A stretch of 29,841 nucleotides of DNA, from assembly GCA_964366285.1 (NCBI GenBank), contig CAYITV010000001.1, positions 1-29,841 of the forward strand. Reading direction: 5' to 3'. The notes below the pieces were generated by a model. That model did no database searches. It saw nothing but the letters and a program-made list of their open reading frames with translations, and was not told the DNA's origin. Shown one piece after another: positions 27,114 to 29,841 of this stretch. Each line of letters starts with the position of its first letter. Positions within the stretch are counted from its first letter, which is position 1. A program made the translations under genes and the position numbers. Source of the DNA: Candidatus Woesearchaeota archaeon. GTDB lineage: Archaea > Nanobdellota > Nanobdellia > SCGC-AAA011-G17 > UBA489.

Positions 27114-27791
27114 TTAAATTATGTCAAACTTGCTGTCTAGAAGAAGAATTGTTTGATTAAGAACCTTAGCATTATAGGCCTGGCCTGCATTGATGATGTT
27201 GATATTACCAGAAACATCAAAAGGCACCTGAACAGAACCGCCAGAATATAACCTCGTGAAAGTAACTTGACGGTTTAAATTGTCAATGTAGTCAACTCTC
27301 CATATATCCGGCGACATCTGGCCAGTACAACCGAATTGAATGCATATATTTACCGTCGGGAATATTATAGTATCAAACGCCTGAACCATCTTGTTTCTGT
27401 TTGCATTAAATGAAAGGAATAATTTGTTGCTTGTTTCATCATATCGAAGTTTGTTGACAATTCCTGCTTGTATTAAATCTGCTTCAGCACCAAAATGATC
27501 TGTCCTCGATGGGTCATATACAAACTGTTTTATTCCGTTAATATTGAAGGTTAATTGATTAACATTTTCATCGACAGAAACAAACTTAGCATTAGCATAA
27601 CCTGGCGGATTTGGAATCCTGAACTGCTCACCTACTTCAATCACCTGGTATGGAAAAAAATTGATGGAATCTGAAAACCTTGCTGATTGAGTGCTTAAAA
27701 CCTGCTGGCCAGTCATACCTTTTCCAAAGAGTGATAAAGATACTGCAAGAACAAGTATAATAATTACAGTAGTGATGTACCCCTTTTCCAT
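27114..27791 (-). CDS. Membrane-anchored/secreted hypothetical protein
   Basis: N-terminal TM helix followed by GMTG; beta-rich, Asn-rich body. Confidence 0.7.
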   Translation of the reverse strand: MEKGYITTVIIILVLAVSLSLFGKGMTGQQVLSTQSARFSDSINFFPYQVIEVGEQFRIPNPPGYANAKFVSVDENVNQLTFNINGIKQFVYDPSRTDHFGAEADLIQAGIVNKLRYDETSNKLFLSFNANRNKMVQAFDTIIFPTVNICIQFGCTGQMSPDIWRVDYIDNLNRQVTFTRLYSGGSVQVPFDVSGNINIINAGQAYNAKVLNQTILLLDSKFDII

Positions 27792-27868
27792 ATTGATTTT
27801 AAGAAGAATAAGATATATATATCTTTCGAATTATTTTTTAAGAGCGAGGTTTACTAAGGCGATTAAAG

Positions 27869-28558
27869 ATGGTGATAAAAGAGCGTGTTTTGGAGCATCC
27901 TGGAAGCTTTTACGTGTTTAGAATCCATGAAGCGAAGACAAATCAGCTATGCAATGGAAACGGCTTTGCACCTTTGAAAACGTATCTCTCCTCTGTGTTT
28001 GAGCAGTGTCCTGACAAGTATTTCCATGAAGGACCTAGAAGCAGCTGCCTGAAATTTAGGATGAACCATGATTTAATTGAAGTGAGAGGGCACGAGGTAA
28101 GCACGCTAGCGAAGTATGGATTACTGGAGAATCAGCAGAGGTACAAGGACAACCATTCACGCGTGCAGATGTTTATGCTAGAACATGACAGTAACACTGT
28201 TGCGATGGAAGTGCCTTTGTGGCTGCATGAGCAGGAATTGGAAGGGTATCATGAACTGTTTGGAAGCGCATTGCCATTGAGCGGGCATATTGATGTGCTG
28301 AGAGTGGATGACGGCAAGGTGTGGATATGGGATTACAAACCACATGCGCAGAAAGAAAAGTATGCAGCAACGCAGGTGTATTTCTATTCCTTGATGCTGA
28401 GCAAGAGAACGGGAATTCCTTTGGAACATTTCAGATGCGGATACTTTGATGATGTGCATGCGTATTTATTTCAACCGAAAGAAGGATTATTACAGAAAGA
28501 AAAGAAAACCTCATTGATGGATTTTAACGAGACAAGTAATATCCATACACTTTCATAA
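27869..28558 (+). CDS. PD-(D/E)XK (RecB-like) nuclease
   Basis: MEVP, GHID, DYK and QVYFY motifs. Confidence 0.82.
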   Translation: MVIKERVLEHPGSFYVFRIHEAKTNQLCNGNGFAPLKTYLSSVFEQCPDKYFHEGPRSSCLKFRMNHDLIEVRGHEVSTLAKYGLLENQQRYKDNHSRVQMFMLEHDSNTVAMEVPLWLHEQELEGYHELFGSALPLSGHIDVLRVDDGKVWIWDYKPHAQKEKYAATQVYFYSLMLSKRTGIPLEHFRCGYFDDVHAYLFQPKEGLLQKEKKTSLMDFNETSNIHTLS

Positions 28559-29228
28559 CCTTCTGCACATAGTTGGTTGTTTCTATTGCGTGCGATTTTG
28601 TAACGACTGGCAGAATTGTTGCAATCGATTCCCATTGATTTTGGGAGAGCACTGCATATGCCTCTATGTTTTCATAGGTGTGCTTTTTGTTTCCGCGCTG
28701 GATTGTAATGCTATTTTTTCCTTGCTGTGCCGCCTCGATGATCTTTTGACAGGCGATGATATTATTTGGACCTGCATTATAAGCTCCAAGGGCAAATTTC
28801 CACCTTTCCAATCCTTGTTCTCGGGAGAAGATATCATACATCCTTCTCAAATAAGCTGCACCGCCAAGGATACTTTGTTCTGGGCTACAACGATCTGTGA
28901 CCCCAACTTCTTTGGCTGCCGCTTCCATTAATTGCGAGAGGCCTTTTGCGCCTGCTTTTGAGGTGCTAATTGGATTGAAGCTAGATTCTACATTGATAAG
29001 GGCGGCATAGAGATGCTGTGAGATATTGTTAGATACTTCTGCATCATGTATTAAATCTTGGTATGGATAAGATAGAGTTGATGCGTGTTCTTCGTACGGC
29101 GTAAACGAGCTTTCTACTTGTTGTTCAAGTGATGATTGTTTTGGAAGAGCGGGGCATGCTATCATTAAACCAGATGCAGTTCCTATTACTGCTGCGAGTA
29201 TTGATTTTGGGAGTGAGAAGTTTGTCAT
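28524..29228 (-). CDS. Lytic transglycosylase (SLT domain) with an N-terminal signal/lipoprotein-like sequence
   Basis: LINVESSFNP (catalytic Glu), GAKGLSQLM, SILGGAAYL, ALGAYNAG and ETTNYV motifs. Confidence 0.92.
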   Translation of the reverse strand: MTNFSLPKSILAAVIGTASGLMIACPALPKQSSLEQQVESSFTPYEEHASTLSYPYQDLIHDAEVSNNISQHLYAALINVESSFNPISTSKAGAKGLSQLMEAAAKEVGVTDRCSPEQSILGGAAYLRRMYDIFSREQGLERWKFALGAYNAGPNNIIACQKIIEAAQQGKNSITIQRGNKKHTYENIEAYAVLSQNQWESIATILPVVTKSHAIETTNYVQKVMKVYGYYLSR

Positions 29229-29245
29229 CTTTTTTGACTTGCTGT

Positions 29246-29841
29246 TTAGTTTTTCGGTGCGCCTTCGGTGCACACAAGCACCCCGAGCGAGGCAACCGAG
29301 TACTGAGGGACCCCATAGCAGTCGAGGTCAGCCCTGACCGAATCAGCGTAGAACCTCGCGACAGCATCATCGATAGGAGAATAGAAATGGATATGCTTTC
29401 CTCTTTGATATCCTTGATATGTTGATTTCTTAATAGCTAATCCTTGCTTGTTAAATGATCTTGGATTAAGATCGATGAGACAACCATTAGCATTCATAAT
29501 ACACTTTTCCAAAGGACTGACGATAGATTGAACAGAATTTCCAAATAATCCTTCAAACTTGTTTTCTGTGGCTGCACAATAGCTTGTTTCTATACAAAAA
29601 TGACCTTGGTCATCTTTCTTAAAATAGGTGGCAAGATTTATCCAACAATCAGCTGTCAAACGCTCATAGAGGTCATGCATACTTCTTTCCGATAGCGGGT
29701 TGCCATAACCATTGAAAAGAGTTGTTTTTTTGCTGTGTGCAGAAACAACATTAATGAGATGGGGGATGAATAAAGATGTACCTACAACTGAAAGGCCTTC
29801 ATCAGCTGCTGCATAAACAGGGGTTCCGCAAGAATTGGCTA
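29246..29841 (-). CDS. Probable DGR target protein (CLec-type C-terminus); 5' end beyond the window
   Basis: The frame is open from the window edge (ANSCGTPVY...SMHDLY), so the listed 144-aa ORF is only the C-terminal part. It ends in a VR-like segment. Confidence 0.72.
   Translation of the reverse strand, partial: ANSCGTPVYAAADEGLSVVGTSLFIPHLINVVSAHSKKTTLFNGYGNPLSERSMHDLYERLTADCWINLATYFKKDDQGHFCIETSYCAATENKFEGLFGNSVQSIVSPLEKCIMNANGCLIDLNPRSFNKQGLAIKKSTYQGYQRGKHIHFYSPIDDAVARFYADSVRADLDCYGVPQYSVASLGVLVCTEGAPKN
29257..29273 (-). promoter_or_regulatory. GAA-loop hairpin just 3' of the putative variable region (DGR homing hairpin candidate)
   Basis: GTGCACC-GAA-GGCGCAC; 6/7 Watson-Crick pairs. 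Confidence 0.55.
29279..29362 (-). other. Putative DGR variable region (VR)
   Basis: 28 codons, none ending in A; 9/84 A and 53/84 GC, versus 39/120 GC at 29401-29520. Encodes VARFYADSVRADLDCYGVPQYSVASLGV. Confidence 0.7.

Follow-up and report, generated by a model that had tools for sequence, protein, structure and literature searches.

How did a gene near the end of an archaeal contig come to end in what looks like the variable region (VR) of a diversity-generating retroelement (DGR), with neither a reverse transcriptase (RT) nor a template repeat (TR) beside it, and is that region still being rewritten? The stretch of DNA analysed here, which we call the window, comprises the first 29,841 nt of contig C1 (30437 nt) from a Woesearchaeota assembly of 816 kb in 115 contigs that is 90% complete. 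A first-pass annotation had read the end of the gene as the VR of a DGR, an element that acts on C-type-lectin-fold (CLec) proteins and occurs in DPANN archaea. A DGR variable region in a CLec-fold protein of a DPANN archaeon is supported by the adenine bias of the mismatches, the IMH with its short-loop hairpin, the AvpA-like model of the protein and the RTs present elsewhere in the genome.

The segment is very probably a VR produced by adenine-mutagenic retrohoming into an AvpA-like CLec protein, a target served in trans whose cognate TR is unassembled or lost. DGR variable regions without a local RT have already been described in Nanoarchaeota, and the VR of the window extends that picture. 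Its value lies in its context, a 0.8-Mb DPANN genome with at least four templates, three intact RTs, targets on other contigs and trans targeting in the adjacent gene.

Composition and sequence elements of the variable region

The end of the target gene differs from its surroundings in base composition. In blocks of ten codons, the GC content rises from 0.30-0.37 upstream to 0.57-0.67 across the last 40 codons, confirming the jump described at first pass. The VR region reaches the highest GC (0.655) of all 84-nt segments in the 29.8 kb (mean 0.403, sd 0.059), and, at about 4.3 sd over the mean, it is the only such region of the window with a GC of 0.60 or more. The annotation had also counted 28 codons with no adenine in the third position and nine adenines in all, and exactly this is found in the 84 nt at 29279-29362. 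The VR has a GC3 of 0.76, the gene body one of 0.28. The reading frame of the VR is intact, and its AAY codons are all gone. The coordinates of these and other features are collected in Table 1.

Table 1. Features of the target locus in the window and insert-bearing templates of the same genome
Feature	Position	Strand	Basis or remark
DGR target gene, 3' 596 nt	29246..29841	-	ORF prediction; stop TAA at 29246-29248
Variable region, 86 nt	29279..29364	-	End-to-end alignment with family TRs after insert removal; GC 0.63, 9 A
Junction codon GTT	29294..29296	-	Equals AA|Y of the template once the mini-intron is removed
IMH-like element GCCTCGCTCGGGGTG	29279..29293	-	Family templates have GGAATA (IMH*) at the same place
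Hairpin GTGCACC-GAA-GGCGCAC	29257..29273	-	Inside the CDS, codons C-T-E-G-A
SLT-domain lytic transglycosylase, exported, co-directional downstream gene	28524..29228	-	Pfam SLT, E=2.5e-21
Insert-bearing TR, contig C15	~74-190		Same genome
Insert-bearing TR, contig C74	~3900-4030	-	Same genome
Insert-bearing TR, contig C90	~2085-2200	-	Same genome

The IMH-like motif CGGGGTG (29285-29279) lies inside the gene and reads GGGGTG here versus GGGGTA in nearly all family members compared. The GAA-loop hairpin that had been noticed near the stop is present, with the arms GTGCACC (29273-29267) and GGCGCAC (29263-29257) enclosing the loop GAA (29266-29264). It pairs at six of seven positions, the third pair from the loop being an A.C mismatch that the annotation had not mentioned. 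In RT-bearing relatives with a CAEG-type hairpin, the stems have at least five contiguous pairs from the loop (in one case four plus wobbles), and the family hairpin presents a G-N-A loop embedded in the codons C-A-E-G-T. Nanoarchaeota DGRs carry TGGGGT in the VR versus TGGAAT in the template, and GRA-loop hairpins inside the target gene (PMC4372165). The motifs of the present family, GGGGT in the VR versus GGAAT in the template together with the loop hairpin, agree with this published pattern.

The coding sequence of the target gene runs beyond the window to an ATG at contig position 29986 and specifies about 246 amino acids. A 10-N scaffold gap (29842-29851) falls within it. Near this gap the protein has extra residues, ANSCGTP, relative to its ortholog; the join may be imperfect, and the frame across the gap is uncertain.

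Directly downstream, the SLT gene begins 17 nt past the stop of the target gene, at the place where a complete cassette would have its TR and RT, and therefore no cassette can lie there. The position of the target gene directly before the SLT gene, apart from any cassette, thus makes it a non-adjacent (trans) target. A repeat search of the window for a TR-like copy and an RT search found neither element, as had been stated at first pass.

An independent Hainich assembly (L035) is 99.8% identical to the window over 27566-29819. To the left of 27566, a position within the gene at 27114-27791, the two diverge completely. At the strain level, this break marks a boundary of recombination or replacement in a gene for a secreted or surface-type protein.

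Fold and family of the target protein

The target protein has no match in Pfam or among PDB sequences (phmmer), and a Foldseek search of its model against the PDB gave no match. The AF2 model, built on 20 homologues, has a pLDDT of 82 and a pTM of 0.82. In an exhaustive VIA-align search with this model, the top match is AvpA (5ioo, Z 6.4, 135 residues across model residues 3-191), followed by TaqVP (5vf4, Z 5.3) and then by about 45 C-type lectins, with little else among the further matches and Mtd lower down (Z 3.9); Z values below 8 are modest by the tool's own caveat, and the match list is nonetheless homogeneous. The model thus supports the assignment of the protein to an AvpA-like CLec fold, as a DGR variable protein, in line with the fold that the annotation had anticipated.

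Homologues of the target are found in 17 of 60 related genomes, and the C-terminal motifs of the family are conserved at the protein level. Three homologous loci, L017 (with two VRs), L023 and L034, are complete target-TR-RT cassettes in which VR and TR differ by 0-2 non-A mismatches, and further pairs are known. The ortholog of the target gene (P0002/L008) shares 67% amino acid identity and the same order of target gene and SLT gene, and no TR or RT is found at its locus. By our reading of the alignments, the VRs of the window and of L008 differ mainly at those first and second codon positions that are adenines in the family TRs, suggesting that trans diversification has acted on the locus since the two lineages split.

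The target gene at L023 (1261-2043, G047:C17), which has a cognate TR and RT beside it, carries its VR out of frame, and the protein tail reads ...GGSTLVAMGILLSRIPRSGYMDAPKARK in place of the motif of the family. Homing that shifted the frame, or variants mixed during assembly, would account for such a sequence.

Descent of the variable region from a family template

Comparison with templates of the family reveals mismatches concentrated on template adenines. With the C15 TR (insert removed), the best in the genome, 12 of 21 A sites and 12 of 61 non-A sites are mismatched (p=0.002). The best TR found anywhere, L068 from a Nanoarchaeota MAG, is mismatched at 13 of 22 A sites and 9 of 60 non-A sites (p=1.6e-4), and all nine non-A mismatches are third codon positions. 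Across the TRs of C15, L068, L066, L043 and L037, the VR is mismatched at 12-13 of 21-22 adenines and at 9-12 of the roughly 60 remaining bases (Fisher's test, one-sided, p between 1.6e-4 and 0.003), the non-A mismatches falling mostly on third codon positions. So strong a bias indicates that the VR descends by adenine mutagenesis from a template of the same family, and the non-adenine differences indicate that it was written by none of the known templates.

A different account would have the GC-rich tail be a conserved lectin-like structural motif or a horizontally acquired segment, its likeness to VRs reflecting shared ancestry only. The lack of a Pfam match and of a cognate TR would fit such an origin, as would the protein-level conservation of the C-terminal motifs. 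We nevertheless consider it very improbable that the tail was not written by a DGR, since the mismatches to at least five independent family TRs cluster on template adenines and the orthologs differ at the same template-adenine sites. Moreover, the IMH and the hairpin are DNA-level signals, and sister genes sit in cassettes with A-only differences.

We infer, then, that homing wrote the copy in the window, working in trans at this locus. The templates of the clade are AAY-rich, carry a bulge-helix-bulge-like insert and end in GGAATA; an RT with the motifs LGNxTSQ and YVDD starts some 30 nt further on. Adenine-mutagenic retrohoming from such a family template would have delivered the sequence at 29279-29364, on the minus strand, to the C-terminus of the AvpA-like protein.

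Reverse transcriptases, templates and a proven trans target

The genome contains three intact DGR RTs (PF00078), on contigs C15, C90 and C44, each with LGNxTSQ and YVDD. An AAY-rich template precedes each RT, and the genome holds at least four templates. On C74 the template is intact and the RT is broken (~3300-3885, minus strand; L002): residues 3-131 and 298-353 are left, out of frame, and the SQ and YVDD core is deleted. No VR for the C74 TR is present in the assembly, which demonstrates that DGR partners are missing from it. The VR fragment at the end of C74 fits, at its 3' end, the IMH* of the C15 TR better than that of C74 itself.

The contig ends themselves coincide with DGR parts. C15 begins about 75 nt before its TR. 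The first bases of C44 already belong to a VR, and C74 stops within another VR, the rest of whose gene is missing. Breaks in the assembly thus fall at DGR repeats.

On C1, the next gene upstream of the target gene ends in a second VR, of another family, at 30047-30130 on the minus strand and beyond the window (L001, ~2318-2401). Over 84 nt it differs from the C44 TR by 12 mismatches, 12 of 12 at template adenines, and its hairpin, GGTGCC-GCA-GGCACC, is a perfect 6 bp. This gene is a proven, clean remote target of the C44 TR, with the RT on a different contig. Contig C44 itself opens with another VR for the same TR. With templates serving targets on other contigs, the genome runs a DGR network.

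A conserved non-coding leader is observed about 150 nt upstream of the TRs of C15, C74, L037, L039, L041, L043 and others; an example reads ...ATGAAATACAA...AGTAGTAATGA...GAAGTT...TTATGGTGA..., and the RT starts within about 30 nt of the TR. In these archaeal DGRs, the counterpart of the structured RNA element known from the 3' side of the TR in Bordetella phage may be located on the 5' side.

Search for the cognate template

The first-pass annotation had predicted a nearly identical template elsewhere, and had proposed a genome search for a copy differing only at adenines beside an RT. In the 115 contigs of the assembly, BLAST and an A-tolerant sliding scan found no TR whose differences from the VR are confined, or nearly confined, to adenines. 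The scan matched the TRs of C15 and C74 only, both homologous and non-cognate, with 6-8 non-A mismatches per 60 nt at best.

The prediction was borne out no better in larger collections. An exact degenerate pattern that accepts A in place of any base of the VR retrieved no TR from metagenome contigs; its sole match there is the window's own locus in the Hainich H51 assembly, a copy with 99.8% identity, an unchanged VR and 4 SNPs elsewhere. The same pattern had no match in viral contigs. Over the GTDB species representatives, an IMH* pattern yielded no cognate TR and two homologous, non-cognate archaeal TRs (L066 and L068); a third match, bacterial, was dismissed as chance. In the near-complete relative G030, which has two RT loci, the TR of the locus outside contig C2 is of another type and non-cognate to the family VRs there.

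The template sequence drafted at first pass resembles the family TRs over the mutagenised part. It missed the insert of 18-25 nt described below and the GGAATA that takes the place of the GGGGT of the VR. The 3' end of the cognate TR is expected to read TGCCTCGCTCGGAATA. Its absence applies to a 90%-complete assembly, and the TR is either unassembled or lost.

Present activity of the variable region

If the VR is genuine, the chance that it is still being rewritten is about even. In one scenario the VR is a live remote target. The unassembled part of the genome would contain the cognate TR, alone or together with its own RT, and an RT of the C15 clade would still rewrite the VR in trans. We place the probability of this slightly below one half. 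In the other it is an orphaned target, a fossil whose template has been lost or has diverged; the VR would then preserve the state in which it was last written and be kept only by selection on the protein. To this we assign a probability only marginally lower.

The state of the VR itself argues for continued rewriting. It is in frame, fully diversified and free of AAY, and its third positions have not drifted to the AT-rich norm of the genome (GC3 0.76 versus 0.28, A3 = 0). A frozen copy would have had to keep this very high GC3, the GGGGT motif and six of seven stem pairs in an AT-biased genome. The stem mismatch, on the other hand, speaks against a live target, and a fossil is favored by the fact that the stems of this gene and of its ortholog are each broken, by different substitutions. 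L021 in G035, a 97%-complete genome in which no RT was found, has a comparable mismatch.

The genomic context is divided in the same way. An active system is supported by the intact RT of the same clade, by the neighboring gene that is a clean remote target of C44, and by an assembly broken at DGR repeats (the edges of C15, C44 and C74) that lacks the partner of the C74 TR. The failure to find the cognate TR in any collection searched (assembly, metagenome, viral contigs and GTDB representatives) counts against activity and for loss of the template, although the assembly is incomplete exactly where DGR parts lie. Homologues of the target persist in G035 and G037, genomes without a detected RT, and VR-only partial DGRs have been described in Nanoarchaeota (PMC4372165), both of which are compatible with an orphaned target.

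Population data bear on the question to a limited depth. Two assemblies and the low-depth contigs of two to three runs share one and the same VR, which favors a fossil. Among Logan contigs (word depth 2.5-4), those of the organism itself have this VR unchanged; the absence of variant alleles, which weighs against a live target, refers to contigs at a depth of 2.5-4 that drop rare variants and render them invisible. Many variant contigs over 29280-29365 run into unlike flanks and thus come from other loci. Six contigs carrying the ortholog are essentially identical, differing at 3 sites that lie some 2.7 kb upstream of the gene, and being near-identical throughout they are uninformative on the stability of the VR. 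Between the orthologs, third-position identity, a possible sign of continued templating, is 13/15 in the VR and 71/99 in the gene body (p=0.35, not significant); the VR shows no reduction, contrary to what an orphan would suggest.

An intron-like insert in the templates of the clade

Every template of the clade carries an insert of 18-25 nt, and the corresponding VR lacks it in 19 of 19 TR-VR pairs. Of 240 genomes of the order, 17 contributed to the set, which comprises 21 templates and 19 template-VR pairs; a control pattern gave 3 hits. Beyond C15, C74 and C90, the loci are L037-L043, L066, L068 and L074-L093. The insert interrupts the last AAY codon after its second base (AA|Y). In 18 of the 19 pairs, the third base of the junction codon in the VR equals the base at the 3' junction of the insert, that is, the last base of the insert or the base after it.

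In all 21 TRs the insert can be folded in the same way: CUCG, an AAA bulge, a covarying stem of 2-5 bp with its loop, and CGAG. The inner stem has a mean of 3.67 pairs versus 0.57 in shuffles. CUCG and CGAG form a central helix of 4 bp, with U.G variants. The inferred cut falls after the second A of AAA, and the 3' junction lies 2 nt past CGAG. The junctions would be situated 2 nt 3' of each helix strand, which is the cleavage geometry of the archaeal bulge-helix-bulge (BHB) motif. The outer helix is irregular, making this a relaxed-type motif, a caveat if the host enzyme is of the strict homotetrameric kind.

Judged from these sequence features, the arrangement points to splicing of the template RNA by the host tRNA-splicing enzymes before reverse transcription. 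Five TR-VR pairs also show A-to-N changes 3' of the insert, which means that the cDNA spans both sides of it and rules out an internal self-priming site at the insert. A simple bypass of the hairpin by the RT is less likely, as the skipped sequence takes in a single strand of the 4-bp helix, in agreement with the BHB stagger.

As for the host enzymes, RtcB is found in the genome. A search for the EndA domain was negative in the 90%-complete assembly and positive in 56 of 60 relatives, both congeners among them. Of 23 tRNAs, 13 have an intron by ARAGORN prediction.

A full-text literature search found no paper that links BHB introns with DGR templates, and no such link was found in PMC4372165. 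Wu et al. 2018 describe length differences between TR and VR only as slippage near AAC (PMC5758913). With such inserts in the templates, TR finders that need an ungapped TR/VR alignment clip or miss the elements and lose their 3' end. The 21 templates and 19 template-target pairs constitute a data set for putative tRNA-type mini-introns in archaeal DGR templates.

Comparison with described DGRs

The closest parallels are the DGRs of the DUSEL4 Nanoarchaeota (Paul et al. 2015, PMC4372165), which share with the present genome multiple cassettes per small genome, the GGGGT/GGAAT pair of IMH motifs and a GRA-loop hairpin in the target gene. The 'partial DGRs' described there are likewise VR-only loci, read as fossils or as remotely diversified targets. 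In contrast to DUSEL4, the target of the window occupies a different locus, a putative operon with an exported SLT enzyme and an upstream DGR target of a second family, and the templates of the clade carry the BHB-like insert.

AvpA (5IOO; Handa et al. 2016, PMC5006420) has the same single-domain CLec fold, a VR near the C-terminus and a hairpin within the coding sequence. The two proteins nevertheless have no detectable sequence similarity (9% identity in the structural alignment), and the VR of the window lies almost at the very C-terminus, whereas 46 residues follow the VR in AvpA.

In the Treponema DGR with its seven targets (Wu et al. 2018, PMC5758913), a target far from TR and RT is also recognised via IMH and hairpin and served in trans. 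Service of this kind is demonstrated in the present genome for the C44 TR and the gene upstream of the target gene. That survey defines targets by having only A-to-N differences to a TR; for the VR of the window, no such TR was found.

The DGR of Bordetella phage BPP-1 (Mtd, TR, Avd and bRT; for target recognition, Guo et al. 2011, PMC3240598) shows the same adenine mutagenesis of AAY codons, IMH/IMH* directionality, GC-rich stem-loop 3' of the VR and CLec fold. The archaeal clade differs from it in the 3-nt hairpin loop inside the ORF and in a TR that abuts the RT without a long spacer. It differs further in the conserved leader 5' of the TR and in the intron-like insert.

The junction of a diversified target with an enzyme that cuts the bacterial wall fits the use of diversified binders by such archaea toward hosts or prey. 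A more far-reaching model combines this with the insert. In it, the host tRNA-splicing enzymes would process an unassembled, intron-bearing template before reverse transcription, and the VR, a live trans target of this template, would form one operon with the C44-templated target and the exported lytic transglycosylase. Two binders, diversified by two DGRs and coupled to a murein-cutting enzyme, would then act as a 'recognise and breach' module against bacterial partners. Taken as a whole, we regard this model as unlikely.

In several relatives the DGR-type RT is encoded in two adjacent pieces with the same split, at about residues 193/198 (G002:C1:539783-540825, G012:C62, G014:C45, G017:C222 and G060:C37). 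These two-piece RTs represent either a recurrent frameshift or a genuinely split RT.
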